IMG/VR virus record: IMGVR_UViG_2537561945_000005
Location: 1 to 50,588 of that record
DNA from: a virus
Taxonomy: Duplodnaviria; Heunggongvirae; Uroviricota; Caudoviricetes
Length of the DNA stretch: 50,588 nucleotides
Direction: 5' to 3' (one strand)
Shown here: piece by piece, positions 1,459 to 38,850 of the stretch
How positions within the stretch are numbered: position 1 is the first letter of the stretch
Layout of the letters: each line of letters begins with the position of its first letter
Notes under the pieces: generated by a model
Database searches by the model: none
What the model was told of the DNA's origin: nothing
What the model saw: the letters and a program-made list of their open reading frames with translations, nothing else
Position numbers and translations under genes: made by a program

Positions 1459-2622
1459 TTACACATCATTAGTACCTTCCTTATTTTTTGACTGGGACAA
1501 ATTTGGGACCGATGGGTTCAGGATCGAGTCTATTTGCCGTGCGTGTTCGGTAAGGTGATTAGGTGCAAGGTGAGCATATCGACGAACCATTTCGATAGAC
1601 TCCCAGCCTCCCATTTCCTGTAACACTGACAACGGGACTCCGGCTTGAACCAGCCAACTTGCCCAGGTGTGTCTCAAGTCGTGAAATCTGAAATCATCAA
1701 TACCAGCCCGTCTCAGCGCCGCTTTCCAGGCTGTGTTTGCGTCATACCGCATCTTCCTTACTGTTGGCGCTTTCGTTCCGTCTGGTTTGGTACAGCTTTC
1801 CTTGTACACAAATACCCAACGGTGATGATTCCCGATTTGTTTTTTCAATACGCGACATGCAGTATCATTCAGCGCAACGCCAATTGCGCGGTTTGATTTA
1901 CTCTCTTCCGGGTTTATCCATGCCACCCGGCGCTGCATATCTATTTGTTGCCATTCAAGGTTGATGATGTTCGAGCGTCTTAAGCCTGTTGCCAGTGCAA
2001 ATTCAACAACAGACTTTAATGGCTCCGGACATTCATCAATCAGCCTTTGTGCTTCATGGGGCTCCAGCCAGCGGATCCGTTTATTCTTTGGTTGAGGCAC
2101 TTTAATAATTGGTGCCTTATCCAGCATTTTCCATTCACGCTCTGCGGCTCTTAGTAGGGCCTTTATAAATGAAAGATGCGTAGCCTTCGTTGCAACGGAC
2201 GCTGGTTTTGGCGTGTATTCTGGAACAGGTTTCCCTTTTTTTCTGCATGCTTCTGCCCTGAGTTTCCAGTTTTCCTCATGACGCCGGTTCGTCATTTTCT
2301 GCATTGCTGAATAAATTTTTGATTCAGTGATGTCTCTTAGTTGCATCCCTGCGAAATGTTGAAGCCAGAATCCGATCCGGCTTTTGTCATCGTCCAGTGA
2401 TTTCTTATGTGCTTTCTCTTCGAGCCACCTGACACACGCTTCCTCAAACGTCATATCAGGTATTTCACCAAGTTTGCTGACCCGCCATGCTTCAGCCTTT
2501 AGCTTGTCATGGAGCTCTGTCGCCTGCCTTTTGTCCTTTGTTCCAAGAGACTGTTTAAATCTTTTACCGTTCGGCAATGTGAAACTGGCGTACCATATTT
2601 CACTTCTGCGGAAGAGTGACAT
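1459..2622 (-). CDS. int: Tyrosine integrase, P22 Int type
   Basis: 387-aa protein near-identical over its length to my recollection of P22 integrase ([19 protein letters not shown]...[15 protein letters not shown]); its 3' end lies 15 bp from thrW. Confidence 0.9.
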
Positions 2623-2849
2623 TTTCTTTCCTCTGTTATGCCATCACCCGCGTTCACCTGGACAGTATGCAGCGGAGACTGAAGCGCCGCAATGCAGGCT
2701 TGCCGTGTTGTGAGGTAAGGAGATTTTGGCTTGGTTGGATCTTTACGTGTTGCCTGTAGGCGGCCTGTTCGTATCCAGTTGGTGGCGGTTGGTCTGGATA
2801 TCTTAAGAAACTGACAGGCCTCATCGAGTGTGAGGCTGTATGATTCCAT
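2499..2849 (-). CDS. xis: Excisionase, P22 Xis type
   Basis: [33 protein letters not shown] matches P22 Xis; overlaps the int 3' end as in P22. The ORF track starts 10 codons earlier at 2879. Confidence 0.75.
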
Positions 2850-3159
2850 GGTTACCTCTGCTTTTTGAACGCATGTCACGTAACTTCTTAATGTGTTCTG
2901 CCGTTTCGATCTCTTCTGCTATCCGATCTGCATCAGCTTTATTCACAGGTTCAAAGTCATGATTAAAGCGGAACATGCTGGCGATACATGTTCTGCCTTT
3001 TCGGATGTAGTGAACTTTGTTGTGGGTAGAACGCAGGATTTTGCAGGGAGTGCCGTGGTGGTCGACGTACCAGGTGTTAGGAAAAATGATTCTGAACATT
3101 TTTACACCCCAGTTGGACGATGTTGAAATTTGCTGCTTTGAGGCCATCACAGTCCCCAT
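2821..3159 (-). CDS. Hypothetical early-left-operon protein
   Basis: 112-aa ORF in the b2/ea position between xis and exo; no family recognised and start codon uncertain. Confidence 0.35.
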   Translation of the reverse strand: MGTVMASKQQISTSSNWGVKMFRIIFPNTWYVDHHGTPCKILRSTHNKVHYIRKGRTCIASMFRFNHDFEPVNKADADRIAEEIETAEHIKKLRDMRSKSRGNHGIIQPHTR

Positions 3160-3365
3160 TGTTTGTTCTTAAGTTCGATCTCCTCCTGGCAACTTGCACA
3201 AGTCCGACAACCCTGAACAGCTAGGCGTCTTCGCTCATCTATCGGATCGCCACACTCACAACAATGAGTTGCGGATACAGTCTGGTAGTTCAGACGACGC
3301 ATTTTTATTGCTGTATTGCGCTGTAATTCTTCGATTTCTGATGCTGAATCAATGATGTCTGCCAT
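3147..3365 (-). CDS. TraR/DksA-family C4 zinc-finger protein
   Basis: 72 aa with CxxC-17-CxxC (CCECGDPI...CRTCASC), typical of phage TraR/DksA-like proteins. Confidence 0.65.
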   Translation of the reverse strand: MADIIDSASEIEELQRNTAIKMRRLNYQTVSATHCCECGDPIDERRRLAVQGCRTCASCQEEIELKNKQWGL

Positions 3366-3463
3366 CTTTCATTAATCCCTGAATTGTTGGTTAATACGCT
3401 TGAGGGTAAATGCGAATAATAAAAAAGGAGCCTGTAGCTCCCTGATGATTTTGCTTTTCATGT

Positions 3464-7251: not shown

Positions 7252-7833
7252 ATGAACAACTCATGGTGGCAGGAACTAATGCATTTTTTCCTGCAAGGAA
7301 TGACACTTAAACAGTTGATTCATATGCTAATCATCCTGATCATATTGATTATTGTTATGCCGGTAAGCGTAAAAGAATGGATAAACCTGCATAATCCAGA
7401 AATCCTTCCTCATTACTGGATGTATTACATCCTGTTGTTTTGCGTTAGCTATGTGCTTAACGGCGTTGTTAATTCCGCTTATCACGCTGTGACTGAAAGA
7501 ATTGAGGTATCCGCTGCTCAGAAGCGAAAATCTAAAGAAGAAAAATATGTGCAAGATTTGTTTGATTCATTAACTCTTGGAGAAAGAGCGTATTTGGCAT
7601 TCGCTGTAGCCGCTAATAACCAGCTACAAACGGAAAAGGGAGCTCATGAATCAATTTCATTGCTCAAAAAAGGACTCCTCGTTCGAAGGCCTCCTGCTGT
7701 TGGATATCCTGATACCGACCGTTTTGTTATTCCTGAAAGCTATAGACATGAGTGCTACATTCGGTTTGCCGGGAAGGCAGACAGCCTTATGGATGAACTT
7801 ATCGCTCAGGATAAGCATGGCAAAAACAAGTAA
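7252..7833 (+). CDS. sieB: Superinfection exclusion protein B
   Basis: 193-aa membrane protein on the opposite strand between ral and N, matching lambda SieB in sequence and position. Confidence 0.8.
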   Translation: MNNSWWQELMHFFLQGMTLKQLIHMLIILIILIIVMPVSVKEWINLHNPEILPHYWMYYILLFCVSYVLNGVVNSAYHAVTERIEVSAAQKRKSKEEKYVQDLFDSLTLGERAYLAFAVAANNQLQTEKGAHESISLLKKGLLVRRPPAVGYPDTDRFVIPESYRHECYIRFAGKADSLMDELIAQDKHGKNK

Positions 7834-7849: not shown

Positions 7850-8158
7850 TCATCTCGCCGTCAGTTGTTTTGATTTCCGGTAGCCTGCCGCGTAAATAGC
7901 TACGTTTGGCAGGCAAACACTTCCACTGCATTCATCTACTTTCTTGCAGCGAAGGCTTCCGAGTGATATTGCTTTTTCAGAAAGGCTTAACCGCTTTCTC
8001 GGGTCTTCCTGAACAGGTTCCTCACTGTCTGTGCCGAAGATCGAATCGATGATGTTGCAGATGGAATCACGCTCGATGGCCAGCTTTCTGCGCCGCTCAT
8101 GACGGCGAGTTTTGGCATTTCCTGCAAATGTTGATTTTCCGTACACGATTACCGTCAT
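7850..8158 (-). CDS. N: Antiterminator N, P22 gene 24 type
   Basis: MTVIVYGKSTFAGNAKTRRHERRRKLAIERD arginine-rich N-terminus matches P22 gp24 rather than lambda N; start at the internal Met, ORF extends to 8242. Confidence 0.8.
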   Translation of the reverse strand: MTVIVYGKSTFAGNAKTRRHERRRKLAIERDSICNIIDSIFGTDSEEPVQEDPRKRLSLSEKAISLGSLRCKKVDECSGSVCLPNVAIYAAGYRKSKQLTAR

Positions 8159-8600: not shown

Positions 8601-9500
8601 TTATTTGATTATTTCTTTTATAAAGACTTCTTTCGGTTGGTATTTTTTATCTGATGATTTGAGCTGGTACGTTATTGTTATATCAGCACGTACAGCAAAT
8701 TTACCTGCAAAATCTGATGGGTTTACGTTGGGGCCAAGAACCATATTTACTCTTCGATCTATTAATCCAGGGATAACAGCAGCCCAACCTTTCTCTGGAT
8801 TGTCGAGGTCTAATGCACGGATTTCAACATCAACATCAAAATGATCCTGAGTATATGACTCTGGTGTGAAGACAACTTCAGTTGGGGCTTTTTTAATGGT
8901 TTCAGCGGGAATGGTCACTGTACCACCCCCTGTACCTATGACCATCGTAGATCCTTCGTCTGCCCTAGCTGGGGCAAGCGTCTTAATGGAACTTTTGGCA
9001 AGAGTCTTCTTATTGGTTACCGTGCTTTCTATGATTGCTTGAAGACGGTCAGGTGAAATATTAGCCTCACCGGCACCAATATTGATGATTGTATTGTTAT
9101 TTGCTTCAAAGTGGGAGGTGTTGCTTGGAGCCATAGCCTTAGTTGCTAGAACTAAGCCATATCCAACCAGACCAATAACAACAGCACCAACGAGAGCGTT
9201 TCTCATTTTCCCATTTCCGATCTTTGCATGAGCGCCAGCAAGAAACTTGTCCATTTCTTCTTGGCTACCAAAGAGGAGTTTAATAACAATATCTTCATAA
9301 AGGCTTCCTGCTTCTAATCGCGCAACATGCACCGATATATCAAGGATATTAGCCCCTGTCAGTTCCTGCAAAACACCTTCTGATTGTTTTGCGATGGCCT
9401 CCCACCCTTGAAGGGAGGTAATCACATCTTTGATGCTTACAGGTTCTTTAGTTGAATAATATATGTTTTCGGTAAAGGTTAAAGATAATTCTTGGGACAT
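8601..9500 (-). CDS. Membrane protein in the rex position (candidate superinfection-exclusion or abortive-infection factor)
   Basis: 299-aa ORF directly downstream of cI on the same strand, where lambda carries rexAB; one central hydrophobic helix (ALVGAVVIGLVGYGLVLATKAMA); no family recognised. Confidence 0.6.
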   Translation of the reverse strand: MSQELSLTFTENIYYSTKEPVSIKDVITSLQGWEAIAKQSEGVLQELTGANILDISVHVARLEAGSLYEDIVIKLLFGSQEEMDKFLAGAHAKIGNGKMRNALVGAVVIGLVGYGLVLATKAMAPSNTSHFEANNNTIINIGAGEANISPDRLQAIIESTVTNKKTLAKSSIKTLAPARADEGSTMVIGTGGGTVTIPAETIKKAPTEVVFTPESYTQDHFDVDVEIRALDLDNPEKGWAAVIPGLIDRRVNMVLGPNVNPSDFAGKFAVRADITITYQLKSSDKKYQPKEVFIKEIIK

Positions 9501-9629: not shown

Positions 9630-10337
9630 TCATGAACTTTTCAGCCATTCCCTGGCCTCGATGTCATCTAGGTGGCGAGATTGCTTCAGAATACCAGCTA
9701 CATACTCCACCTTTGCTACTTGATGATAAGGCAACGTTATTGGCCTGTGGTCTTGGTTGATGCTTGTAAATTGGTATTCTCCGTCTCTGTCATAGCCAAG
9801 AACCTTGATCATGTTGTGCCCTTCAATGGTTCTGACAAACACCTCATCACCTGGGAATACTTTGGTGTTAGGCTCAATGAGTACATATTCTCCTGATTTT
9901 ATTCTGGGCCACATGCTGTCTCCTTTTACACGAAGACCAAAGGCATCTGGATCATCGCTATAAATCTTGAGCCACCCATCGCGCTCTTCGGTCATCTCGA
10001 TGGCACCATCAACACCAAGAATTGCCTCACCAACCACGCGCACTAACCCTTTTTTTAATTTGCCAACAATTGAAAAAGTATCTTCATCATTCGCTCCATT
10101 TAACGAAGTGCCGTGCTGAAGCCAAATAACATCAACGTTTAGAAATTTCGCAAGCGCATTCATTTTTTCCTGGCGTGGTAAAGACTCAGCATTAAACCAT
10201 TTGCTAACGCCTTTGGACGAAAGAGAAAGGGCACGGGCTATGGCCATTCCCCTACCATGTTCATCAAGACCAGCTTCTTTACAGGCTTGCGCTAGCCGCT
10301 GGGCGAATTCTTTGCGCACTTTTTCATTCTGAACCAT
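9630..10337 (-). CDS. cI: CI-type repressor with HTH and LexA-like S24 peptidase domain
   Basis: 235 aa with N-terminal HTH (GMAIARALSLSSKGVSKW) and C-terminal GDSMWP Ser/Lys autopeptidase motif; divergently arranged with cro. Confidence 0.85.
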   Translation of the reverse strand: MVQNEKVRKEFAQRLAQACKEAGLDEHGRGMAIARALSLSSKGVSKWFNAESLPRQEKMNALAKFLNVDVIWLQHGTSLNGANDEDTFSIVGKLKKGLVRVVGEAILGVDGAIEMTEERDGWLKIYSDDPDAFGLRVKGDSMWPRIKSGEYVLIEPNTKVFPGDEVFVRTIEGHNMIKVLGYDRDGEYQFTSINQDHRPITLPYHQVAKVEYVAGILKQSRHLDDIEAREWLKSS

Positions 10338-10415
10338 GAGTACGATACTAAAGCACTTGCAAAAACTTTCAGTTCAACCATAATGCGTACTGAAAGTACG
10401 AAAAAGGACATTCCT
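10338..10415. promoter_or_regulatory. Divergent operator/promoter region (oR, pRM, pR)
   Basis: 78-bp cI-cro intergenic region containing inverted half-sites ACTTTCAGT / ACTGAAAGT. Confidence 0.5.
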
Positions 10416-10643
10416 ATGCAAAATCTTGATGAGCCGATTAAAGGTGTCGGCATCCCTGAAGTTGCGAAGGCTTGTGGAGTTAGCGAAAGGGCTGTCTATA
10501 AGTGGCTCAAAAACGGCTTCCTCCCTAAGACTGAGTTTTTTGGGAAAACGAAATACGCATCAAAAATCGAAGAGATTTCTGGTGGCAAATATCAAGCAAG
10601 CGAAATGCTTGAAATAAGCAAAAAGAACCTTCTGGCAGCATAA
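10416..10643 (+). CDS. cro: Cro-like HTH repressor
   Basis: 75 aa with HTH VAKACGVSERAVYKWLKNG; start chosen at the Met with AAGGA upstream, ORF track begins at 10383. Confidence 0.7.
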   Translation: MQNLDEPIKGVGIPEVAKACGVSERAVYKWLKNGFLPKTEFFGKTKYASKIEEISGGKYQASEMLEISKKNLLAA

Positions 10644-10650: not shown

Positions 10651-10685
10651 CGCTCTTTATCAATCTGCACCGCCGACAACGCGGT
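10651..10685 (+). promoter_or_regulatory. nutR (boxA CGCTCTTTATCA, boxB hairpin)
   Basis: boxA consensus at 10651-10662 and a 5-bp stem hairpin ACCGC-CGACAAC-GCGGT at 10669-10685, between cro and cII. Confidence 0.6.
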
Positions 10686-13039: not shown

Positions 13040-13480
13040 ATGAAAAAACTAACCTTTGAAATTCGATCTCCAGCACATCAGCAAAACGCTATTCACGCAG
13101 TACAGCAAATCCTTCCAGACCCAACCAAACCAATCGTAGTAACCATTCAGGAACGCAACCGCAGCTTAGACCAAAACAGGAAGCTATGGGCCTGCTTAGG
13201 TGACGTCTCTCGTCAGGTTGAATGGCATGGTCGCTGGCTGGATGCAGAAAGCTGGAAGTGTGTGTTTACCGCAGCATTAAAGCAGCAGGATGTTGTTCCT
13301 AACCTTGCCGGGAATGGCTTTGTGGTAATAGGCCAGTCAACCAGCAGGATGCGTGTAGGCGAATTTGCGGAGCTATTAGAGCTTATACAGGCATTCGGTA
13401 CAGAGCGTGGCGTTAAGTGGTCAGACGAAGCGAGACTGGCTCTGGAGTGGAAAGCGAGATGGGGAGATCGGGCTGCATGA
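13040..13480 (+). CDS. ninB: NinB (Orf) recombination mediator
   Basis: 146 aa from MKKLTFEIRSPAHQQNAIHAV matches lambda NinB. Confidence 0.85.
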   Translation: MKKLTFEIRSPAHQQNAIHAVQQILPDPTKPIVVTIQERNRSLDQNRKLWACLGDVSRQVEWHGRWLDAESWKCVFTAALKQQDVVPNLAGNGFVVIGQSTSRMRVGEFAELLELIQAFGTERGVKWSDEARLALEWKARWGDRAA

Positions 13481-14004
13481 CAATCAAATCAAATACGCCA
13501 GCACACGACAAGGACTGCTGGCAAACGCCGCTTTGGCTTTTTGATGCACTGGATATTGAGTTTGGATTCTGGCTGGATTCGGCAGCGAGCGACAAAAATG
13601 CTCTGTGTGCTCACTGGCTAACTGAGGCCGACGACGCGCTCAATTCTGAGTGGGTAAGCCACGGTGCAATCTGGAATAACCCACCGTACAGCAATATCAG
13701 GCCGTGGGTGGAAAAAGCCGCTGAGCAGTGCATACAACAGCGACAGACGGTAGTTATGCTTGTGCCAGAGGATATGTCAGTCGGATGGTTCAGCAAGGCT
13801 CTGGAGAGTGTCGACGAAGTTCGCATTATCACTGATGGACGGATTAATTTTATCGAACCATCGACAGGGTTGGAGAAGAAGGGAAACAGCAAAGGCTCCA
13901 TGCTGCTGATTTGGCGACCGTTCATCAGTCCTCGACGGATGTTTACTACCGTATCCAAAGCGGCATTGATGGCGATCGGGCAGGGCGTCAGGAGGGCGGC
14001 ATGA
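13477..14004 (+). CDS. Phage N6-adenine DNA methyltransferase (Dam-like)
   Basis: 175 aa with NPPY motif ([10 protein letters not shown]) in the nin region; ATGA overlap with the ninB stop. Confidence 0.7.
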
Positions 14005-14177
14005 GGCGACAGCGACGAAGTTTCACCGACATCATCTGCGAAAACTGCAAATACCTTCCAACGAAACGCTCCAGAAATAAACGCAAGCCAATCCCAAAAG
14101 AATCTGACGTAAAAACCTTCAATTACACAGCTCACCTGTGGGATATCCGGTGGCTAAGATATCGTGCGAGGAAATGA
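14001..14177 (+). CDS. ninE: NinE-family protein
   Basis: 58 aa [37 protein letters not shown] matches the lambdoid NinE family. Confidence 0.6.
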
Positions 14178-14179
14178 CA

Positions 14180-14708: not shown

Positions 14709-14727
14709 AAGAGGGGATTATTAAGGC

Positions 14728-25566: not shown

Positions 25567-25594
25567 GGGGCGCGGAACCGCGCCCCCTGTTTTG
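25567..25594 (+). terminator. Hairpin after the capsid gene (probable partial terminator)
   Basis: GGGGCGCGG-AAC-CGCGCCCC followed by CTGTTTT, directly after the capsid stop. Confidence 0.5.
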
Positions 25595-25608
25595 ACGGGT
25601 GAAGAATC

Positions 25609-25809: not shown

Positions 25810-25811
25810 GT

Positions 25812-26542: not shown

Positions 26543-27023
26543 TTTTCAGCAGCCCGCGGAGATGCGCTTTAACCGCGCCCGTGTCCGGCGGGCGTTTGTC
26601 ACGATTGGTCAGCGTCATATGCGTGATGCCCGTCGGCTGGTGATGCGCCGTGCGCGGTCGGCACCGGGTGAAAACCCCGGTTATCAGACCGGACGCCTGG
26701 CTCGTTCGATTGGTTACATGGTACCCAGAGCCAGTAAACATCGCCCTGGTTTTATGGCACGTATAGCCCCTAACCAGCGTAATGGAGAGGGAAATCGCCG
26801 TATCACCGGTGATTTTTATCCGGCTTTTTTGTTCTATGGCGTGAGGCGAGGGGCAAAGCGTCGTCGCAGCCATCATCGTGGTGCATCCGGTGGCAGCGGC
26901 TGGCGACTGGCTCCACGTAATAACTTCATGGTGGAAACTCTTGAAAAGAACCGCAGCTGGACACGCTATTTTCTGGCGCGGGAATTGCGTAAATCACTGA
27001 AGCCGGAGCGACGACACAGATGA
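26517..27023 (+). CDS. HK97 gp10-like neck protein
   Basis: 168 aa, basic, in the head-tail joining block. Confidence 0.55.
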   Translation: MTTSFLHVDFQQPAEMRFNRARVRRAFVTIGQRHMRDARRLVMRRARSAPGENPGYQTGRLARSIGYMVPRASKHRPGFMARIAPNQRNGEGNRRITGDFYPAFLFYGVRRGAKRRRSHHRGASGGSGWRLAPRNNFMVETLEKNRSWTRYFLARELRKSLKPERRHR

Positions 27024-27580
27024 AACTGACGCCTGTTATTGCTGCACTGCGTGCCCGCTGTCCGTATTTTGAAAACCGGGTTGCAGGCGCGGCCCAGTTC
27101 AAAAATCTGCCGGAGGTCGGAAAGCTGAAGCTCCCGGCGGCATATGTGGTACCGGGTGATGACTCTCCGGGAGAAAACAAAAGCCAGACCGACTACTGGC
27201 AGGAGCTGAAAGAGGGCTTCTCCGTGGTTGTCATACTGAGTAACGGGCGTGATGAGCGCGGTCAGTTTGCCTCGTATGATGTGGTGGACGATGTCCGGCA
27301 GATGCTCTTTAAGGCTCTGCTGGGCTGGAACCCGGAAGCGTGCGGTAACCCGATTACCTATGACGGCGGTACGCTGCTGGATCTGAATCGTCATGAGCTG
27401 ATTTATCAGTTCGATTTTTCGGTCATCAGCGAGCTGACTGAAGACGATACCCGCCAGCAGGATGACCTGAACAGTCTGGATGAACTGCGAACGCTGGCGA
27501 TTGATGTTGATTATCTCGATCCCGGTAACGGGCCTGACGGCGATATCGAACATCACACCGAAATAACCCTTCCTTCCTGA
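27020..27580 (+). CDS. Tail completion / neck protein
   Basis: 186 aa immediately upstream of the sheath gene. Confidence 0.5.
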   Translation: MKLTPVIAALRARCPYFENRVAGAAQFKNLPEVGKLKLPAAYVVPGDDSPGENKSQTDYWQELKEGFSVVVILSNGRDERGQFASYDVVDDVRQMLFKALLGWNPEACGNPITYDGGTLLDLNRHELIYQFDFSVISELTEDDTRQQDDLNSLDELRTLAIDVDYLDPGNGPDGDIEHHTEITLPS

Positions 27581-27588: not shown

Positions 27589-27759
27589 ATGTTTGTGAAA
27601 CCTGTTAAAGGGCGGTCAGTGCCTGACCCTGCCCGCGGCGACCTTTTGCCCGCCGAAGGGCGAAATGTTGACGAGAACAACTACTGGCTGCGCCGTGAAG
27701 CCGCGGGTGATATCCGGCGCGTGAATAAAAAGGTGAACACCGATGACGATAAGCTTTAA
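27589..27759 (+). CDS. Small ORF upstream of the sheath gene
   Basis: 56-aa ORF MFVKPVKGRSVPDPARGDLLPAEG... overlapping the sheath start; too short for the ORF track. Confidence 0.35.
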   Translation: MFVKPVKGRSVPDPARGDLLPAEGRNVDENNYWLRREAAGDIRRVNKKVNTDDDKL

Positions 27760-29239
27760 CACCATTCCGTCGAATACGCTGGTTCCGTTGTTTTATGCGG
27801 AAATGGATAACCAGGCGGCGAATACTGCACAGGACAGCGGAGCATCGCTGCTGATTGGTCATGCCAATAACGGTGCAGAGATTGTTGCCAACAGTCTGGT
27901 ACTGATGCCGTCGGCAGACTATGCACGCCAGATTTGTGGTGCGGGAAGTCAGCTGGCGCGTATGGTCGAGGCTTATCGCCAGACTGACCCGTTTGGCGAG
28001 CTGTATGTGATTGCCGTTCCTGAATCCACAGGCGCGGCGGCAACAGTTACGCTGACGGTGACCGGGGCAGCAACCGAAACCGGCACGGTGAATGTTTATG
28101 TGGGACGTACCCGCGTGCAGGCACCGGTGACCAACGGCGATAACGTCGCGACGATTGCCAGCAGTATCAAAGATGCCATCAATGCCGTTCCGGCCCTGCC
28201 GTTTACGGCCTCATCTTCGGCTGGTGTGGTTACACTGACCGCTCGCCATAAGGGGCTTTGCGGGAATGAAATTCCTGTCAGCCTCAATTACTACGGCTTC
28301 GGTGGGGGCGAAGTGCTGCCAGCGGGCGTACAGATTGCCGTGGCGACGGGGAACGCCGGAACGGGCGCTCCTGTTCTCACCGGCGCGGTGGCTGCAATGG
28401 CGGATGAGCCGTTTGATTATATCGGCCTGCCGTTCAACGACACGGCCTCCGTTAACACGCTGGTGACCGAGATGAACGATACCAGCGGTCGCTGGAGCTA
28501 TGCGCGTCAGCTGTATGGTCATGTGTATACGGCAAAGATCGGCACGCTGTCAGAACTGGTGACCGCAGGTGACCAGTTTAACCAGCAGCACATTACCCTG
28601 GCGGGGTACGAAAAAGACACCCAGACGCCTGCCGACGAGCTGGCGGCAAGCCGTACCGCCCGCGCAGCGGTGTTTATCCGCAACGATCCGGCACGTCCCA
28701 CGCAGACCGGTGAGCTGGTGGGTATGCTGCCTGCGCCGAAGGGGAAACGGTTCACGATGACCGAGCAGCAGACCCTGCTGTCTCATGGCGTGGCAACGGC
28801 GTATGTCGAAAGCGGGGTGCTGCGCATTCAGCGTGATGTCACCACGTACAGGAAAAATGCTTACGGGGTTGCGGATAACAGCTACCTCGACAGCGAGACG
28901 CTGCATACCAGTGCGTATGTACTGCGCAAACTGAAATCCGTCATTACCAGTAAGTACGGGCGTCACAAGCTTGCCAGCGACGGTACCCGCTTTGGTCCCG
29001 GTCAGGCGATTGTCACCCCGGCGGTAATCAAAGGGGAACTGCTGGCAACCTACCGTCAGCTTGAGCGTGCGGGGATCGTGGAAAACTACGAACTGTTTAA
29101 GCAGTACCTGGTTGTGGAGCGTGATGCCAGCGATCCGAACCGCCTGAACACGCTGTTCCCGCCTGACTATGTTAACCAGTTGCGTGTTTTTGCCGTGGTT
29201 AACCAGTTCCGTCTTCAGTATTCAGAGGAGTCTGCATAA
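27743..29239 (+). CDS. Tail sheath protein (Mu gpL type)
   Basis: 498 aa upstream of the tube/chaperone/tape-measure block; marks a contractile tail. Confidence 0.85.
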   Translation: MTISFNTIPSNTLVPLFYAEMDNQAANTAQDSGASLLIGHANNGAEIVANSLVLMPSADYARQICGAGSQLARMVEAYRQTDPFGELYVIAVPESTGAAATVTLTVTGAATETGTVNVYVGRTRVQAPVTNGDNVATIASSIKDAINAVPALPFTASSSAGVVTLTARHKGLCGNEIPVSLNYYGFGGGEVLPAGVQIAVATGNAGTGAPVLTGAVAAMADEPFDYIGLPFNDTASVNTLVTEMNDTSGRWSYARQLYGHVYTAKIGTLSELVTAGDQFNQQHITLAGYEKDTQTPADELAASRTARAAVFIRNDPARPTQTGELVGMLPAPKGKRFTMTEQQTLLSHGVATAYVESGVLRIQRDVTTYRKNAYGVADNSYLDSETLHTSAYVLRKLKSVITSKYGRHKLASDGTRFGPGQAIVTPAVIKGELLATYRQLERAGIVENYELFKQYLVVERDASDPNRLNTLFPPDYVNQLRVFAVVNQFRLQYSEESA

Positions 29240-29595
29240 TGGCCCGTATCGGGGGAACCTGTTATTTCAAAATTGACGGTCAGCAGCTATCGCTGACCGG
29301 CGGCATTGAGGTGCCCATGAACAGGACGGTCAATGATGACATCATCGGCCTGGACGGTTCAGTGGACCGCAAGGAAACTCACCGTGCGCCTTATGTCAAA
29401 GGGACCTTCAAGGTGCCGAAGAATTTTCCGGTGAGCAAAATCACCTCGTCTGATGAGATGACCATCACTGCCGAGCTGGCGAACGGTCAGGTCTATGTAT
29501 TGTCGTCCGCCTGGCTGCACGGAGAAGCGAACCATAATGCCGAAGAAGGCACGGTTGATCTTGAGTTCCACGGTGAAGAAGGGGATTACCAGTAA
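29239..29595 (+). CDS. Tail tube protein
   Basis: 118 aa; TAATG coupling to the sheath gene. Confidence 0.8.
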   Translation: MARIGGTCYFKIDGQQLSLTGGIEVPMNRTVNDDIIGLDGSVDRKETHRAPYVKGTFKVPKNFPVSKITSSDEMTITAELANGQVYVLSSAWLHGEANHNAEEGTVDLEFHGEEGDYQ

Positions 29596-29864
29596 TGAAA
29601 GAGCTTGAGTTAAAGAAACCGATTATCGCTCATGGTGAGACACTCTCCGTACTGGAGTTTGATGAACCCACCGGGAAGGATGTCCGCGAGCTGGGGTATC
29701 CCTACCAGATGAATCAGGATGAGTCCGTCAGACTTCTGGCGCATGTGGTGTCGAAATACATTGTGCGGCTGGCGAAAGTGCCGCAAAGCTCTGTCGACCA
29801 GATGTCTCCGGCAGACCTGAATGCAGCGGCGTGGCTTGTGGCTGGTTTTTTCCTCCAGGCCTGA
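29595..29864 (+). CDS. Tail assembly chaperone (short form)
   Basis: 89-aa ORF before the tape measure gene, with a downstream overlapping -1 ORF to 30013. Confidence 0.7.
   Translation: MKELELKKPIIAHGETLSVLEFDEPTGKDVRELGYPYQMNQDESVRLLAHVVSKYIVRLAKVPQSSVDQMSPADLNAAAWLVAGFFLQA
29846..29852 (+). other. Slippery heptamer TTTTTTC for -1 programmed frameshift
   Basis: Zero-frame GGT TTT TTC; a -1 slip reads PPGLTAEYLTDRFF... through to 30013, matching the 29831-30013 ORF. Confidence 0.65.
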
Positions 29865-30005
29865 CGGCTGAATACCTCACTGATCGCTTCTTTGACTGCG
29901 CCAGCTACTGGCGCATTAATCCCTTCGAATTGCTGAATATGCCGATCAGTGAAATTCCCTTGCTGGTCAGTCAGGCAAACAGGATAGAGCAGGAGAAACG
30001 CACAC

Positions 30006-31838
30006 ATGGCTGAATTTGAGCTTAAGGCGTTGATCACCGGTGTCGACAGGCTTTCTCCCGCGCTGTCGAAAATGCAAAAGAAAATCCGGGGATTTAAACG
30101 CCAGGCGGAAGAAGCGTCACAGGGTGGGCTGGCGCTTGGTGGCGGACTGGCAGCGGGTCTGACGCTTTCCCTGAAATCTTATGCTGATCAGGAAAACGCC
30201 GCCACCGGGCTGAAAGTCGCCATGATGGATGCGAACGGCGAGGTTGGAAAGAGCTTTCAGGACATCAATAAACTGGCTATTGGCCTGGGTAACCAGCTAC
30301 CCGGTACAACGGCTGATTTCCAGAACATGATGCAGATGCTGGTGCGTCAGGGGATCCCGGCAGAAAACATTCTTGGTGGTGTGGGTAAAGCGACAGCTTA
30401 TCTTGCGGTACAACTGAAAAAAACACCGGAAGCGGCTGCTGAGTTTGCCGCAAAGATGCAGGATGCTACCGGAACGGCCTCAGAAGACATGATGGGGCTG
30501 TTCGACACAATTCAGAAGGCGTTTTATCTGGGCGTGGACGATACCAACATGCTGTCATTCTTCACTAAAACCAGCTCTGTTCTGAAGATGGTGAATAAGG
30601 ACGGTCTTCAGGCTGCACAGAGTCTTGCCCCCATCAGTGTCATGATGGATCAGATGGGGATGAACGGGGAGTCGGCAGGTAATGCCCTGCGAAAAGTTAT
30701 CCAGTCCGGATTAAGCGTTAAGAAAATCAGGGACGTCAATAAAATCATGGCCCGCCAGAAACTCGGGGTACAGCTCGATTTTACTGATGGCAAAGGGAGT
30801 TTTGGCGGTCTTGATAACATGTTCAGGCAACTGGCAAAGCTGCGAAAACTGACCGACGTTAAGCGAACCGGTGTACTTAAGGCAATATTTGGTGATGATG
30901 CCGAAACCCTTCAGGTGGTCAATGCACTAATCGATAAAGGAAAGGATGGCTACGATCAGATCCAGCAGAAGATGAATAAACAGGCCAGCCTGAATAAACG
31001 TGTTCAGGCTCAGCTTGGTACGCTGTCCAACCTGTGGGAGGCAATGACGGGGACCGCAACTAACGGCCTTGCGGCTATTGGCGGCGCATTTTCTGGTGAC
31101 GCTAAGAACATCACGCAGTGGCTGGGGGAGTTGGGGGAGAAATTCACGAAGTTTGCGGATGAAAATCCCCGGGTTATTCGCGGCGTCGTCGGGCTTGCTG
31201 CCGGTCTTGCGATTCTGAAACTGGGATTGATGGGCGTGGGCAGTGCCATCAGCATTGTCAGCAGGATCATGTCGATGACGCCGATTGGCATGATTGCGAC
31301 GGCGATAGCCCTGGCTGCGGGATTAATTATCACTAACTGGGATGTTGTCGGACCTTATTTCAAGAAGCTCTGGGAAACCATTGGTCCTTATTTTGAGGCT
31401 GGCTGGGAACTCCTTAAGAAAGTTTTTGCCTGGTCGCCGCTGGGGATGGTGATCAATAACTGGGGACCGGTTGTTAAGTGGTTTCAGGATATGTGGGATA
31501 AGCTGAAGCCGATTATTGAATGGTTTACCGACAGTTCCGGTGACACGGTCGATACCATTAACTCGGCGCAGTGGGGCGCGGGTGCTTATGATGCTTATGG
31601 GACGGGAATACCGGCACGGGGATACACGCCTTATCCGGCGGTGGATCCGGCTCAGGCAAACAACGCCTCCGATGCCACAGGCTCGAATCCCTTCATGATT
31701 AATAAAGCTACCGCGCCAAAAGTTGATGGTGAGATCAAGGTATCATTTATAAATATGCCACCAGGTATGCGGGTTACGGAAACACGCTCCAGTGGCATTG
31801 ATATAAATCACGATGTTGGCTATACCCGATTTTGGTAG
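30006..31838 (+). CDS. Tail tape measure protein
   Basis: 610 aa, alpha-helical and Ala/Gly-rich with hydrophobic segments, after the chaperone frameshift pair. Confidence 0.85.
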   Translation: MAEFELKALITGVDRLSPALSKMQKKIRGFKRQAEEASQGGLALGGGLAAGLTLSLKSYADQENAATGLKVAMMDANGEVGKSFQDINKLAIGLGNQLPGTTADFQNMMQMLVRQGIPAENILGGVGKATAYLAVQLKKTPEAAAEFAAKMQDATGTASEDMMGLFDTIQKAFYLGVDDTNMLSFFTKTSSVLKMVNKDGLQAAQSLAPISVMMDQMGMNGESAGNALRKVIQSGLSVKKIRDVNKIMARQKLGVQLDFTDGKGSFGGLDNMFRQLAKLRKLTDVKRTGVLKAIFGDDAETLQVVNALIDKGKDGYDQIQQKMNKQASLNKRVQAQLGTLSNLWEAMTGTATNGLAAIGGAFSGDAKNITQWLGELGEKFTKFADENPRVIRGVVGLAAGLAILKLGLMGVGSAISIVSRIMSMTPIGMIATAIALAAGLIITNWDVVGPYFKKLWETIGPYFEAGWELLKKVFAWSPLGMVINNWGPVVKWFQDMWDKLKPIIEWFTDSSGDTVDTINSAQWGAGAYDAYGTGIPARGYTPYPAVDPAQANNASDATGSNPFMINKATAPKVDGEIKVSFINMPPGMRVTETRSSGIDINHDVGYTRFW

Positions 31839-31929: not shown

Positions 31930-32460
31930 ATGAAAGGCTATATCACAGCAAGTGTAATTCTTGGAGCAGCGGCTATTTTTTCATCTCTCATAATCTCTGG
32001 CAACATCTCCTTTAAAGATGAACATATTATTCAGTTATCTGGAGGAGCCATAAAACTTGGTGATGTTTATAAAGAAAATAAATTGATAAGTGCAAAGATT
32101 ATTTTTCCAGATAATCAGGGTGAACAGATTCTTGTTGTCGACGGCAATCCTGAAAACTTTAAGGAGGATTTTCAGGAGAAATTAAATAAAGTAATAAAAA
32201 CTTTAAATGCGTCAAAGAAAAAAGATGAAGAGAAAGTTAGCCTGGATAATTTAAGTGTTATTGAAGAGTCTAAACTAGAGCTCGTTTCTGCGGTGCGTTA
32301 CTCTGCTCAGTATGTTCCTATGTTTACTCTGACGCTGGACAAAAAAGAAATTACCATGCCTAAAAATACGGTAATATTTCCATTTGCCAGCGATGAAACA
32401 GCTAAGTATTTAAATGAACAACAGCAAAAGTATAAAGATTCGTTGTTTCTGACTCGCTAA
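31930..32460 (+). CDS. Moron: secreted or membrane-anchored protein of unknown function
   Basis: 176 aa with N-terminal hydrophobic segment (ITASVILGAAAIFSSLIISG), Lys/Glu-rich; AT-rich codon usage unlike flanking tail genes. Confidence 0.6.
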   Translation: MKGYITASVILGAAAIFSSLIISGNISFKDEHIIQLSGGAIKLGDVYKENKLISAKIIFPDNQGEQILVVDGNPENFKEDFQEKLNKVIKTLNASKKKDEEKVSLDNLSVIEESKLELVSAVRYSAQYVPMFTLTLDKKEITMPKNTVIFPFASDETAKYLNEQQQKYKDSLFLTR

Positions 32461-35899: not shown

Positions 35900-36944
35900 A
35901 TTTCAGCGCCCGACGCTGGCAGAAAATATCAGTATGCTCCGTAACGATTTATTCGCCAGGCTGGACGTCAGCGACACGCTCCGGCGCATGGATGAAGACG
36001 TGCGGGCAAAGGTGTATGCGGCGGCGCTGCATACGGTTTACGGGTACATCGATTATCTGGCAATGAATATGCTGCCTGACCTGTGCGATGAGTCCTGGCT
36101 GGCGCGACATGCTGCGATGAAACGGTGTCCGCGCAAGGGGGCCACGGCTGCCAGCGGGTATATGCGCTGGGAAGGTGTCAGCGATGGCCTGAAGGTGACT
36201 GCCGGGAGCGTGATTCAGCGCGATGACCTGGTTCAGTACACGGCAACTGCCGATGCAATCAGCTCCGGTGGTGTCCTGCGTGTGCCGATCACTTGCTCAA
36301 CTACAGGCGCGGTCGGTAACGCTGACGACGGTACGGCATTAATCCTGGTCACGCCGGTGAATGGTCTGCCGTCTTCCGGTGTTGCAGATACCCTGACTGG
36401 CGGATTCGATACTGAAGATCTGGAAACGTGGCGCGCCCGCGTCATTGAGCGGTATTACTGGACGCCGCAGGGCGGGGCTGACGGGGACTATGTCGTCTGG
36501 GCTAAAGAAGTGCCCGGCATTACCCGCGCATGGACATACCGTCACTGGATGGGAACGGGAACTGTCGGTGTGATGATTGCCAGCAGTGACCTGATTAATC
36601 CCATTCCGGAAGAATCAACGGAAACGGCGGCAAGACAACATATCGGGCCACTGGCCCCGGTGGCAGGCTCTGATTTGTATGTGTTCAGGCCGGTGGCACA
36701 TACGGTGGATTTTCATATCCGCGTGACGCCGGACACACCGGAAATACGGGCTGCCATCACCGCCGAGTTGCGTTCGTTCCTGCTGCGTGATGGTTATCCG
36801 CAGGGAGAACTGAAGGTGTCACGTATCAGTGAGGCGATTTCCGGTGCGAACGGGGAATACAGCCATCAGTTGCTTGCACCGGCGGACAATATCTCCATTG
36901 CAAAAAATGAACTGGCGGTTCTGGGGGCGATTTCATGGACGTGA
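35886..36944 (+). CDS. Baseplate J-like protein (Mu gp47)
   Basis: 352 aa in the expected order. Confidence 0.78.
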
Positions 36945-37519
36945 CAAACGATGATTACATCCGTCTGTTGTCGGCACTGCTGCCGCCCGGTCCGGCGTGG
37001 TCAGCCAGCGATCCGGCGATTGCTGGTGCGGCACCGTCATTAACCCGTGTTCATCAGCGTGCGGATGCCCTGATGCGGGAGCTGGATCCGCGCACCACCA
37101 CTGAACTGATAAACCGTTGGGAGCGTCTGTGCGGTCTGCCGGATGAATGTATTCCCGCAGGGACACAGACCCTTCGCCAGCGTCAGCAACGGCTGGATGC
37201 GAAGGTTAATCTGGCGGGCGGCATCAATGAGGATTTTTACCTTGCACAGCTTGCTGCCCTGGGCAGACCAGACGCCACTATCACGCAATACGATAAAAGC
37301 ACGTTCACCTGCTCATCGGCCTGTACTGACGCGGTGAATGTGCCGGAATGGCGGTATTACTGGCAGGTCAACATGCCAGCCGCCACCAACACCACCTGGA
37401 TGACATGTGGCGACCCCTGTGATTCCGCACTGCGTATCTGGGGGGACACCGTTGTCGAATGTGTGCTTAACAAACTCTGCCCGTCGCATACCTACGTAAT
37501 TTTTAAATATCCGGAGTAA
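36935..37519 (+). CDS. Baseplate/tail protein (Mu gp48-like)
   Basis: 194 aa immediately upstream of the tail fibre gene. Confidence 0.62.
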
Positions 37520-37522
37520 TCC

Positions 37523-38437
37523 ATGCATCGTATAGACACAAAAACCGCGCAGAAGGATAAGTTCGGCGCGGGTAAGAACGGTTTTACCCGTGGTAACCCC
37601 CAGACCGGCACGCCAGCCACCGATCTGGATGATGACTACTTTGACATGTTGCAGGAAGAACTCTGCAGCGTGGTGGAGGCATCCGGTGCCAGTCTGGAGA
37701 AGGCGCGGCACGACCAGCTGCTTACCGCGCTTCGTGCGCTGCTGTTAAGCCGCAAGAATCCGTTTGGCGATATCAAATCGGATGGCACTGTGCAAACGGC
37801 TCTCGAAAACCTTGGTTTGGTGGATGATTCCGGTGTAGTAGGCCGCTTGCTTAATACTCAAGTGATTACCTCATCTGGTACTTACACCCCAACACCGGGT
37901 ACCCGGAAAATTAAGGTAATTCTTACCGGGGGAGGTGGCGGTGGTAGTTCTGTCATCGCCACATCATTTTCTCAGACGGCGTTTGGAGGTGGAGGTGGCT
38001 CTGCCGCAACCTGCATCGGTATTTTTGACCTTGAAGATATCAGTGATTTTTCTGTCGTTATCGGAGCAGGTGGAACAGCTGATAATCCAGGTGGGACATC
38101 AACATTTAATGGAATGTCAGCCGGTCGCGGTGGTAGTGGATCCGGCGTAAACACTCCGTCAATTGGTTCTGGTGGTGCAGATGGAACAGCTACTGGCGGG
38201 CTAATCAATATCCATGGTGGCTATGGTAGTGACGGTCAGCAGGGAAGTTATTACTCATTTGGTAATGGTGCGGCTTCGTTCTGGGGGGGAGGTGGTCGTG
38301 CTGGTTCTGCTAATGGTGTTGCAGCCAAAGCATATGGTGCTGGCGGAGGTGCTGCTTATGACACCGCTTTTTCAGGAGTGCTAAAAGCCGGTGGAACAGG
38401 AGCGCCTGGGATCTGCGTGATTGAGGAGTTTGCATAA
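37523..38437 (+). CDS. Tail fibre protein with Gly-rich C-terminal domain
   Basis: 304 aa; N-terminus [47 protein letters not shown] typical of fibre N-termini; Gly-rich distal half. Confidence 0.8.
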
Positions 38438-38850
38438 TGAATTACGCATTAATTAAAAATAATGTCGTCGTAAATACGGTTGTCTGTAATTCAGATAACG
38501 ATGCAAAAAAATTATTTCCGGATTACACCGTCATTAATATTACTGGCATTGCCGCAGGAATAAACTGGACATATGACGGTACTAATTTCACGGCGCCAGT
38601 TATTGAAAAATCAGTTGCCGAATTAGCCGCGGAAAATATGGCAATATCAAACTCTGAGTATGCTCGCGCAACAACTCAAATCGATTTGTTGAACGATCAG
38701 ATCCAGGATGCTGACTACACTGACACAACTGAGAACGCAGTGAAGTCGGCACTTACAGAGTGGACTGAGTACCGTAAATCATTACGTGCATATATCAGGG
38801 CTGGTGACTGGACACAGTCACTGCCTATTCAGCCAGATTCGGTCAGTTAA
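38437..38850 (+). CDS. Tail fibre assembly chaperone
   Basis: 137 aa directly after the fibre gene with ATAATG coupling. Confidence 0.72.
   Translation: MNYALIKNNVVVNTVVCNSDNDAKKLFPDYTVINITGIAAGINWTYDGTNFTAPVIEKSVAELAAENMAISNSEYARATTQIDLLNDQIQDADYTDTTENAVKSALTEWTEYRKSLRAYIRAGDWTQSLPIQPDSVS

Follow-up and report, generated by a model that had tools for sequence, protein, structure and literature searches.

Gene content of the thrW prophage

The window (the whole 50,588-nucleotide stretch of DNA that was analyzed) comes from a pig Escherichia coli strain and carries a seemingly complete temperate phage of 41.7 kb in the thrW tRNA gene. A 52-nt thrW repeat flanks the prophage (attL at 1399-1450, attR at 43107-43158), its copies matching the core and arm of SfV attP exactly, and these repeats therefore set the length of the prophage at 41,708 bp, i.e., 100.6% of the SfII genome (41,475 bp). 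The initial annotation had placed the right end at 38850, whereas the actual end is attR, 4.3 kb further, so that a cargo region with an IS421 copy is included. The homologies, open reading frames, and att, nut, ori and frameshift sites given below, as well as the population distribution, are direct observations. From left to right, the features are:

1369..1444, +: thrW tRNA-Thr(CGT), the integration target (ARAGORN; RefSeq annotation)
1399-1450, no strand: attL, 52 nt equal to SfV attP exactly; 46-nt core exact also in SfII and P22
1459..2622, -: integrase, 387-aa open reading frame (RefSeq start 2577); amino acid (aa) identity 100% to SfII, 98% to SfV, 90% to P22
2499..2849, -: excisionase (HTH_17); aa identity 96% to SfII, 90% to P22
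2870..7231, -: early-left block of DUF4222, TraR/DksA, orf61/63/60a, exo, bet, gam, kil, cIII, ea10 and ral
7252..7833, +: sieB, superinfection exclusion; 83% aa to P22 SieB
7850..8158, -: N antiterminator of the P22 gp24 type; 71% aa identity
8277..8310, -: nutL, with boxA GCTCTTTAAC (8301-8310) and boxB GCGCTGACAAAGCGC (8277-8291), both equal to P22 nutL
8601..9500, -: 299-aa membrane protein, function not known, in the position of lambda rexAB (phrog_4506)
9630..10643: immunity region, with cI 9630-10337 (-; HTH and S24 peptidase), oR 10338-10415 and cro 10416-10643 (+)
10651..10685, +: nutR, with boxA CGCTCTTTATC, one base off P22, and boxB ACCGCCGACAACGCGGT (10669-10685), equal to P22
10750..12966, +: cII with 83% aa identity to HK97 and 39% to lambda, followed by O, P and ren with 98-100% aa identity to lambda
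13040..15227, +: nin region of ninB, N6-adenine methyltransferase, ninE, ninX, ybcO fragment (14642-14731), rusA and ylcG
15313..15696, +: late antiterminator Q; 100% aa to DLP12 QuuD; Pfam Phage_antitermQ
15886..16983, -: intact NmpC/OmpC-type porin, a lysogenic-conversion gene
17556..18726, +: lysis cassette of holin 17556-17771, endolysin 17771-18268, Rz 18265-18726 and embedded Rz1 18485-18667
18758..19051, -: iss/bor serum-resistance lipoprotein
19576..22276, +: packaging module of HNH endonuclease 19576-19926, terS 20052-20546 and terL 20543-22276; 94-99% aa to SfII
about 19927-20050: cos region, placed from the linearization point of the SfII and SfV records
22288..27580, +: ymfR, portal, S78 prohead protease, HK97-family major capsid, connector, head-closure, neck and tail-terminator genes; 93-100% aa to SfII
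27589..31838, +: contractile tail with DUF2635 protein, sheath, tube, tail chaperone and tape measure protein
31930..32460, +: low-GC moron, 176-aa protein with a signal peptide or transmembrane segment
32522..37519, +: Mu-type baseplate; 97-100% aa to SfV/SfII, 27-43% to Mu
37523..38850, +: tail fiber (304 aa), then a 137-aa putative fiber-assembly protein
38927..39700, -: CMoRE/PD-T4-3, a GIY-YIG type IV restriction endonuclease, cargo
39929..41265, +: IS421, with 12-bp target duplication GGGGCAAATCCC at 39917-39928 and 41266-41277
41874..42868: AraC-family regulator 41874-42617 (+) and IS integrase-core remnant 42659-42868 (-)
42982..43158, no strand: SfV/SfII-type attP arm (96-97% nt), with attR 43107-43158 at its end

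Likeness of the modules to known phages

The early half of the element is close to lambda in much of its coding sequence. The early-left block is collinear with phage 1H12 from 2870 and 97.5% identical to lambda at the nucleotide level from 3170 onward, and the proposed near-identity to lambda was borne out for exo, bet, gam, kil, cIII, ea10 and ral (96-100% aa) as well as for O, P, ren and ninB (98-100%). Rz, Rz1 and bor extend this range down to 92%. The lambda ori iterons with their AT-rich region are conserved at 11430-11566 (one mismatch in 137 nt), and the gene order is lambdoid, but lambda int, N, cI, cro, Q, S, R and all lambda virion genes are absent from the window. Its N protein gave no match to lambda N and is of the P22 gp24 type, and both boxB hairpins are identical to their P22 counterparts, as had been noted. 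For int and xis, however, the P22 label did not hold: They belong to the SfII/SfV module (97-98% nt identity, versus 81% to P22), i.e., to the parent of the virion genes. The likeness to P22 thus comprises the thrW att core, the Int/Xis family, the N type with its hairpins, sieB and the related ninE and ninX, whereas P22 c2, gene 23, replication, lysis, podovirus virion and gtr genes are lacking. The cI/cro immunity region, on which the initial annotation is silent, is of neither the lambda, P22, HK97 nor SfV type; it matched 1H12-type phages at 99.8% nt identity (97% for some Stx2a phages). The N6-adenine methyltransferase of the nin region is 99% identical in amino acids to that of HK97.

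From rusA onward, the K-12 prophage DLP12 is a close relative, its rusA, ylcG, quuD, nmpC, essD, rrrD, rzpD and bor genes being 97-99% identical in nucleotides; yet at argU DLP12 has decayed to a remnant, with nmpC broken by IS5, whereas here the module is intact in a complete phage. The DLP12/phage 21 character assigned to Q, the porin and the lysis genes is well founded for DLP12 (99-100% aa for Q, porin, holin and endolysin). For phage 21, it holds for the holin (Pfam "P21 holin S") and for the R21-type endolysin, which matches PDB 3HDE (phage 21 R21; E = 4e-112) and 4ZPU, but for Q the relation to Q21 is remote (E = 8e-7). Rz, Rz1 and bor resemble lambda (92-99% aa) no less than DLP12.

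The late genes likewise fit the description of a lambdoid regulatory genome joined to the genes of a myovirus particle, as in SfV-like phages: Pfam places the head genes in HK97-type families and those of tail and baseplate in the Mu gp45/46/48, GpP and DNA_circ families, while the late region is 97-98% identical in nucleotides to SfII and SfV. An HK97 head and a Mu tail are present at the level of protein families only, with no detectable DNA similarity of the window to HK97 or Mu. For HK97, the shared families are portal, protease, capsid and terminase (25-36% aa); for Mu, they are sheath, gp38, N, P and gp45-48 (27-43% aa), and the tube protein gave no direct match to Mu M. The baseplate homologs comprise the DNA-circularization protein N, the hub P, gp45, gp46, gp47 (Baseplate_J) and gp48. 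The tail chaperone carries a -1 frameshift slippery site (the T-run in GGTTTTTTC near 29845). Neither the Mu transposase, repressor and invertible G segment nor the HK97 tail and early genes occur in the window.

SfII (NC_021857; with SfI and SfIV) resembles the window in attP, int, xis, the cos/HNH/terminase region, thrW integration, portal/protease/capsid (99% aa, also for the capsid protein itself), neck, sheath, tube, tape measure and baseplate, with nucleotide identities of 97.9% over 19927-31832 and 97.3% over 32498-37820. The early region, Q and lysis genes of SfII are its own and show no DNA similarity to the window, its fiber tip and assembly gene are different, and it carries gtrA, gtrB, gtrII and an acyltransferase beside attP, all missing here; the window in turn has a 666-bp insertion after the tape-measure gene. 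This low-GC moron, which neither SfII nor SfV has, comes with a terminator and a promoter-like site of its own. SfV (NC_003444), the prototype of the "SfV-like" lambdoid myoviruses, shares architecture, att site and integrase, and its terminase, tail and baseplate genes are 96-100% identical in amino acids; its portal/protease/capsid module is another HK97-family allele (portal and capsid of the window have 25-27% aa identity to SfV and 26-32% to HK97), it has other early, Q and lysis genes, and its gtrABV genes are absent from the window.

The fiber has an SfV-type N-terminal part of 99 aa and a C-terminal Gly_rich_2 domain. RefSeq splits it into a "pseudogene" and a coding sequence, although it is one open frame whose exact protein occurs on 77 contigs. 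Family matches of the C terminus and the 137-aa partner are weak (Caudo_TAP, E = 0.005). Beyond the fiber, no gtr serotype-conversion genes were found in the prophage, and the slot that holds gtrABC in the Shigella phages is filled by CMoRE/PD-T4-3, the IS421 insertion and the AraC regulator, a CMoRE-AraC cargo that recurs in numerous thrW-integrated SfV-like prophages of E. coli. The stretch 41874..42868 is 98.6-99% identical to att-proximal cargo of the lambdoid siphophages PhiR70_1, ev099 and mEp332. IS421, which belongs to the cargo and interrupts no known essential gene, sits in a tRNA-Ser-like fragment, and strain CPE35 has the empty site.

A probable two-parent origin and its alternatives

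The labels lambda, P22, DLP12 and phage 21 hold gene by gene, but the many-parent mosaic that they suggest is misleading for the whole element. The non-structural half (2870-19166) is collinear with 1H12/Lambda_ev245-type phages (Jouyvirus, lambda-like siphoviruses) at 95.6-98.3% nt identity, in the segments 2870-6806, 7147-15672 and 17545-19166. The likeness covers DUF4222 through exo-bet-gam-kil, sieB, the P22-type N and nut sites, the immunity region with the 299-aa gene at the rex position, lambda O/P/ren, the nin genes, a quuD-type Q and P21-type lysis genes with bor. 1H12 differs in its lambda head, non-contractile tail, other int/xis and att site, in lacking ral, and in its Q-to-holin cargo (lipocalin and ybgA-like genes, in place of the porin). 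The int-xis-attP segments (1399-2859 and 42982-43158), like all virion genes (19575-37820), show 97-98% nt identity to Shigella phage SfII; measured against SfII/SfV, 1399-2859, 19575-31832, 32498-37820 and 42982-43158 show 96-98%. Because the non-structural half pre-exists as a single collinear block in siphophages such as 1H12, the element is most simply read as an essentially two-parent hybrid and not as a five-phage patchwork, a history that is an argument from parsimony. An SfII-like phage would have donated attP, int, xis and the entire virion module, and a lambda-like siphophage of the 1H12 type all that lies past xis up to the lysis cassette. The mosaic is real yet ordinary, and by its sequence it falls in a described class: By definition, SfV-like phages are lambdoid Myoviridae, and they integrate at thrW (PMC3603311; PMC3851460). 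We consider it very probable that the element is a 41,708-bp temperate SfV-like prophage at the 3' end of thrW, with a P22/SfV-family tyrosine integrase, that arose by recombination of an SfII-like and a 1H12-like parent.

Long repeats common to lambdoid prophages can mis-join, and each genome has several places that match the window, which would allow for an assembly artifact that fused two separate prophages of the strain. We regard this as extremely improbable, given that the same contiguous arrangement is found in three complete genomes, that the flanks are coherent (proA-thrW on the left, attR on the right), and that both junctions recur, the left one in 641 and the right one (lysis to packaging) in 197 of 5426 E. 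coli genomes. The E. coli strains BE311, F41 and K99S, which share the window at 100% identity, may belong to one clone and hence do not count as three independent witnesses; the arrangement is, however, also present in decayed copies in the independent strains CPE35 (Thailand) and SCU-118 (human), with deletions and without IS421. It is similarly unlikely, if somewhat less so, that the DNA between 38.9 and 43.1 kb does not belong to the phage but is the remnant of another integrated element (e.g., a serU-type lambdoid phage) caught between the prophage and thrW, with 38850 as the correct end. The block 39880-42869 (tRNA-Ser-like fragment, AraC, IS remnant) indeed lacks a counterpart in SfII or SfV and is 98.6-99% identical to att-proximal DNA of the siphophages named above; but it occupies the exact gtrABC slot, its cargo is common among thrW SfV-like prophages, and no second att repeat was found near 38.9 kb. 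Moreover, the attP arm and attR lie beyond the block, and Int-mediated excision would therefore take it along.

More weight is due to the possibility, which we still hold to be the lesser one, that the prophage is cryptic, i.e., complete-looking but no longer making infectious particles, possibly through a mismatch of lambda-type late control with the SfII-type late operon, a non-functional chimeric fiber, or polar effects of IS421. The insertion sequence within the element points this way, as do the PGAP pseudogene calls on three fragments (the fiber N terminus, stfP; ybcO; an Rz1 remnant), the 410 bp without assignment (19166-19575) between lysis and packaging genes, and the decay of near relatives, with three large internal deletions in the CPE35 copy. 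Set against this, none of the 60-odd phage genes is interrupted or shortened in comparison with SfII, 1H12 and DLP12, the fiber frame is continuous and its exact sequence recurs on 77 contigs, IS421 made a clean duplication in non-coding cargo, the lysis-to-packaging junction is retained across genomes, and the genome length suits an SfII-type head. A search of every gene of the prophage for frameshifts and stops found none, all annotated frames translating without internal stops, in agreement with the earlier view that the modules are intact. No essential gene is thus visibly broken, and inducibility appears plausible.

Predicted life cycle of the phage

From the gene set, we infer that the prophage may be expressed, induced and assembled into particles. 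In the lysogen, the LexA-like cI repressor would block pL and pR until SOS-induced self-cleavage lifts the block, after which the nutL and nutR hairpins would be read by the matching P22-type N, and the lambda ori would be fired by lambda O and P. The QuuD-type Q is predicted to antiterminate late transcription through the phage-21-type pinholin/SAR-endolysin cassette into the packaging genes, with HNH, TerS and TerL carrying out cos packaging. The resulting virion would combine an HK97-fold capsid with a Mu-type sheath, tube and baseplate, and would probably recognize its host by a fiber with a new glycine-rich tip. While resident, the phage may equip its host with conversion and defense cargo in the form of the porin, Iss/Bor, SieB, CMoRE, the AraC regulator and two membrane proteins of unknown function.

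Extent and integration site of the thrW prophage

We compared the window, by blastn and by per-gene tblastn, with lambda, P22, HK97, Mu, the Shigella lambdoid myoviruses SfV and SfII, and the K-12 region that holds the cryptic prophage DLP12. The chromosome of Escherichia coli BE311 from piglet faeces (NZ_CP097213.1) carries the window at 100% identity, as do strains F41 and K99S, and at least 80% of either window half was found only in these three. The names of the relatives K99S and F41 suggest ETEC. The features at the ends of the prophage are as follows:

1-1254: proA, which opens the window
1369-1444: thrW, tRNA-Thr(CGT), the sole tRNA gene detected in the window
1399-1450: left copy of a 52-nt direct repeat, in the 3' part of thrW
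43107-43158: right copy of the repeat, with one mismatch between the two copies

The SfV attP region contains the left copy without a mismatch, and SfII and P22 likewise contain its first 46 nt unchanged. By blastn, the final 177 bp of the prophage (42982-43158, right copy included) share 96-97% identity with the SfV and SfII attP arm. We therefore take the repeats to be attL and attR, which gives a prophage unit of 41,708 bp. The initial annotation had drawn the edges at 1459 and 38850; the left one, at the end of int, was essentially right, but the right one fell 4.3 kb short of attR. The means of thrW integration, a shared 46-bp att core and conserved Int and Xis, are present, with Int 98-100% identical in amino acids to that of the Shigella serotype-converting phages, whose 46-bp attP and thrW target are documented (PMC3851460). 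The description of int and xis as P22-type captured the family (90% amino acid and 81% nucleotide identity), but SfII is closer, at 100% and 96% amino acid identity, respectively (97-98% in nucleotides). The integration module goes with the virion genes, with no separate P22 parent.

Composition of the regulatory and virion halves

Two early stretches follow lambda closely: orf61 to ral (3170-7231, 97.5% nucleotide identity by blastn) and the end of cII through O, P, ren and ninB (10985-13483, 98.5% by blastn). The proteins of both sets are 96-100% identical to those of lambda, in line with the earlier view of exo to ral, O, P, ren and ninB as almost lambda-identical. The iterons and AT-rich stretch of the lambda ori are present at 11430-11566, where one position of 137 nt is a mismatch. 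Similarity to P22 runs from ral through sieB and N to nutL (6858-8352, 80% nucleotide identity by blastn). Here, N shares 71% amino acid identity with P22 gp24 (tblastn), and lambda N gave no tblastn match to the window N. The nut elements are

8301-8310, minus strand: nutL boxA, identical to P22 nutL
8277-8291, minus strand: nutL boxB, identical to P22 nutL
10669-10685: nutR boxB, identical to P22 nutR; the nutR boxA differs by one change

Both boxB sequences are predicted hairpins (-8.6 and -6.7 kcal/mol), and the proposal of a P22-type N with P22-style boxB at nutL and nutR thus stands. By its sequence, the N/nut pair would belong to the P22 specificity class of antitermination.

Farther along, 14642-19105 is 97-99% identical in nucleotides to DLP12 (ybcO fragment, rusA, ylcG, quuD, nmpC, essD, rrrD, rzpD and bor). 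The DLP12/21 type assigned to Q, the lysis genes and the porin was accordingly apt for DLP12, but Q, although 100% identical to QuuD, has just a remote similarity to Q21 (E = 8e-7). The holin falls in the Pfam family "Bacteriophage P21 holin S," and the endolysin matches PDB 3HDE, which we take to be the R21 endolysin of phage 21, and 4ZPU (E about 1e-111). Rz, Rz1 and bor are also 92-99% identical in amino acids to their lambda counterparts. The NmpC/OmpC-type porin (15886-16983, minus strand), disrupted by IS5 in the K-12 DLP12, is intact in the window; together with an Iss/Bor serum-survival lipoprotein (18758-19051, minus strand), it is potential fitness or virulence cargo.

The immunity genes cI and cro had no match in lambda, P22, HK97, SfV or SfII. 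Their region is 99.8% identical in nucleotides to the 1H12/Lambda_ev245 phage group and 97% to some Stx2a phages, and when k-mers of the cI-cro stretch were compared with those around pL, the sole results were an inverted ACTTTCAGT/ACTGAAAGT pair and a single common 9-mer. The lambda-like siphophage 1H12 (Jouyvirus), for which a search found no literature, is collinear with the whole non-structural half, at 97.4% over 2870-6806, 98.3% over 7147-15672 and 95.6% over 17545-19166. The 1H12-type unit combines lambda-type recombination and replication genes, a P22-type N with its nut sites, the same immunity type, a gene for a 299-aa protein at the rex position, HK97/P22-like nin genes, and DLP12/21-type Q and lysis genes. 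Cultured lambdoid phages therefore already have the non-structural block as one unit.

The late half (19575-37820) matches SfII, SfI, SfIV and SfV at 97-98% nucleotide identity, save for a 666-bp insertion at 31832-32498, and its tail proteins are 96-100% identical in amino acids to those of SfV and SfII. The earlier reading of an HK97 head on a Mu tail agrees with the protein families, which are Phage_capsid, Peptidase_S78 and Phage_portal for the head and Phage_sheath, Tail_tube, Phage_Mu_Gp45, GP46, Baseplate_J and Phage_Mu_Gp48 for the tail (Pfam). It does not extend to DNA, however: Neither HK97 nor Mu had a blastn match in the late region, and amino acid identity is 25-43%. The HK97 values are portal 32%, protease 36%, terL 26% and capsid protein 25-26% (across under half of its length), and the sheath and baseplate proteins share 27-43% with Mu; Mu M had no direct tblastn match to the window tube protein. 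The portal, protease and capsid are 99% identical in amino acids to SfII and just 25-27% to SfV. This SfII-like rather than SfV-like pattern agrees with the published split, in which one HK97-family head allele is common to SfI, SfII and SfIV and SfV has another (PMC3851460).

The tail fibre reads as a single gene:

37523-38437: tail fibre, one 304-aa frame with a 99-aa SfV-type N-terminus and a Gly_rich_2 domain

RefSeq splits this frame into a "StfP pseudogene" ("missing C-terminus") and a "glycine-rich domain protein," and the exact 304-aa protein occurs on 77 contigs, mostly named "carbohydrate kinase"; both the split and this name look like annotation errors. The 137-aa ORF after the fibre carries weak tail-fibre-assembly signals.

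Origin and class of the hybrid

Taken at face value, these family names describe a five-parent mosaic of lambda, P22, 21, HK97 and Mu. We rejected that history because alignments to 1H12 and SfII account for nearly all the DNA (95.6-98% identity), and HK97 and Mu share none in the late region. Most simply, the prophage is a two-parent hybrid made by two crossovers. The first would lie after xis and before the opening early-left gene, where SfII homology extends to 2859 and 1H12 homology begins at 2870; with this 10-bp gap at a gene boundary, the initial annotation was accurate in calling the module boundaries sharp. The second, at 19166-19575, would fall after bor/iss and before the HNH gene. 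These ~410 bp, which separate the lysis cassette from the HNH gene, contain most of the RefSeq "Rz1 remnant" (19156-19284), had no match in any reference phage compared, and are probably debris of the crossover that joined the two parents. A third source would have supplied part of the cargo adjoining attR.

Both hybrid joints are common in E. coli: At least 80% of the junction of int-xis with the lambda-type early-left genes (1900-4300) is covered in 641 of 5426 complete genomes, and the Rz-iss/HNH-terS junction (18300-20600) is covered in 197 of them. The full combination had no record in the phage collection, where none spans at least 80% of either window half. Phage vB_EcoM-689R6, the closest cultured myovirus, was considered as an instance of the same combination and rejected; its late genes are SfII-type, but they are combined with an SfV-type early region and an e14-type int.

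The "SfV-like" group is defined as lambdoid Myoviridae (PMC3603311), and the idea of a lambdoid regulatory genome driving a myovirus particle, here read from genes, coincides with this definition. The lambdoid order is present (int-xis, early-left, N, cI, cro, cII, replication, nin, Q, lysis and late genes), and the gene content includes Mu-type contractile tail genes and an HK97-family head. The element adds a member to this known class, and its architecture is unsurprising. With Shigella SfI, SfII, SfIV and SfV, it shares the thrW att site and Int, but the O-antigen modification genes by attP are missing: Searches with SfV GtrA, GtrB and GtrV, SfII GtrII and the SfII acyltransferase (tblastn) found no gtrA, gtrB, type-specific gtr or oac in the window. 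Lambdavirus and Jouyvirus have lambda-type head and non-contractile tail genes, whereas the window contains no lambda or 1H12 structural DNA, and lambda had no match to any late-region protein. Mu-like phages transpose replicatively and integrate at random, whereas this prophage is site-specific at thrW with att repeats, and Mu A, B, repressor c and Gin had no tblastn match in the window. The P22-like phages (Lederbergvirus) have a podovirus virion and c2/gene 23 control genes, and the relation of the prophage to them is limited to int/xis, N, sieB and some nin genes; P22 c2 and gp23 had no tblastn match in the window.

Cargo, membrane proteins and integrity

In SfV and SfII, gtrABC occupies the interval from the fibre genes to attP. 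In the window, this slot holds a gene for the restriction enzyme CMoRE, IS421, an AraC-family regulator and an IS remnant:

38927-39700, minus strand: CMoRE/PD-T4-3, GIY-YIG, full length
39929-41265: IS421, inside the prophage, with a clean 12-bp target duplication GGGGCAAATCCC

Recent work showed that CMoRE is a type IV restriction endonuclease that acts on DNA with 5hmC and glucosyl-5hmC (PMC12923530), and the window copy reads as a full-length match to this characterised GIY-YIG enzyme (PADLOC PD-T4-3, E = 2e-140, 255 of 256 positions; PDB 9U75, E = 4e-172, full length). The IS421 insertion split a non-coding 3' fragment of a serU-like tRNA-Ser, for which E. coli CPE35 has the empty site. 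The fragment overlaps a tRNA-Ser annotation in phage SerU-LTIIb, and the lambdoid siphophages PhiR70_1, ev099 and mEp332 have att-proximal DNA that matches 39880-42869 at 98.6-99% identity; the fragment and the AraC region look like a fossil att region of the third parent. The same CMoRE-AraC cargo is present in many E. coli SfV-like prophages at thrW, which often have an invertible fibre segment (pinE, tfaE), unlike the window prophage. Besides this cargo, the prophage has the intact porin, iss/bor, sieB and an N6-adenine methyltransferase as conversion or exclusion genes.

Two further genes encode membrane proteins of no assigned family function:

8601-9500, minus strand: 299-aa protein with one central transmembrane helix, between pL/N and cI, the position of lambda rexAB
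31832-32498: 666-bp moron, GC about 44%, between the tape-measure and DNA-circularisation genes
31867-31894: promoter-like site of the moron
31930-32460: 176-aa moron protein with an N-terminal signal peptide or transmembrane segment
32478-32503: terminator of the moron

The 299-aa protein belongs to PHROG 4506 (unknown function), with homologues from Enterobacterales to Methylococcales; it had only a sub-threshold Pfam match (DUF1206), no PADLOC match and, for its AF2 model (pLDDT 82), no Foldseek neighbour in the PDB at E <= 0.001. Its gene is a candidate exclusion or abortive-infection gene. The moron is absent from SfII and SfV, and its protein (PHROG 5485, unknown function) has homologues in Enterobacteriaceae only and no Pfam or PADLOC match.

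A second island, 43316-48739, follows attR directly as a tandem integration with a GC content of about 33%:

43316-44524: P4-type tyrosine integrase
44766-45974: N6 DNA methyltransferase (PADLOC MTase_II, full length, E = 8e-237)
45967-47673: ORC/CDC6-like AAA ATPase
47651-48739: 362-aa protein, no Pfam match and no PDB sequence match
48926-49623: past the island, transposase CDS (RefSeq) of an IS1 copy
50034 onward: frameshifted hypothetical gene, at the window end

From this gene content, the island looks like a restriction-modification or defence module, and, with the IS1 copy and the frameshifted gene that close the window, it is itself being eroded by insertion sequences.

Each annotated phage gene lacks internal stops and covers 100% of its closest homologue. 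Rz1 is embedded in Rz (18485-18667), the tail chaperone has a T-run slippery site, as expected, with a -1 frame ORF after it, and the prophage is 100.6% of the length of SfII (41,475 bp), with a capsid protein 99% identical. RefSeq lists three pseudogenes: the ybcO fragment (14642-14731) and the Rz1 remnant, which are debris at recombination joints, and stfP, which is an annotation artefact. The suggestion that all modules are intact thus appears to hold for the essential genes, none of which is visibly damaged on translation, with the qualification of IS421 in the cargo and the ybcO and Rz1 debris. CPE35 (L010, 6948-23925) has a decayed copy of the prophage at thrW, without IS421 and without the second island after attR. 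Three internal deletions removed orf60a-ninB, the HNH gene to the portal and onward to the tail chaperone, and the DNA-circularisation gene to the fibre; the lineage therefore does decay, and CPE35 provides a natural comparator "before IS, after decay." We consider it unlikely that one joint reading holds throughout, in which an inducible hybrid would make SfII-type myovirus particles under lambda-type control, the Gly-rich fibre tip would confer a host range undescribed for this virion type, and the 299-aa and 176-aa proteins would add new superinfection-exclusion or defence functions to those of CMoRE and SieB.

Overall, the initial observation was real and mostly accurate, and its interpretation was right in kind. 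Descriptions of lambdoid modular exchange and of lambdoid genomes with Mu-type tails reportedly go back to the publication of the SfV genome in 2002. The prophage carries little weight for phage biology in general. Its use lies in the boundaries and the two-parent reading, which make it a correctly bounded, apparently intact example of an SfV-like prophage in E. coli; in the correction of a fibre that RefSeq splits into a pseudogene and a CDS; in singling out two prophage membrane proteins in classic exclusion-gene positions; and in CMoRE in place of gtr, whereby the "conversion slot" by attP can hold an anti-T-even restriction enzyme instead.
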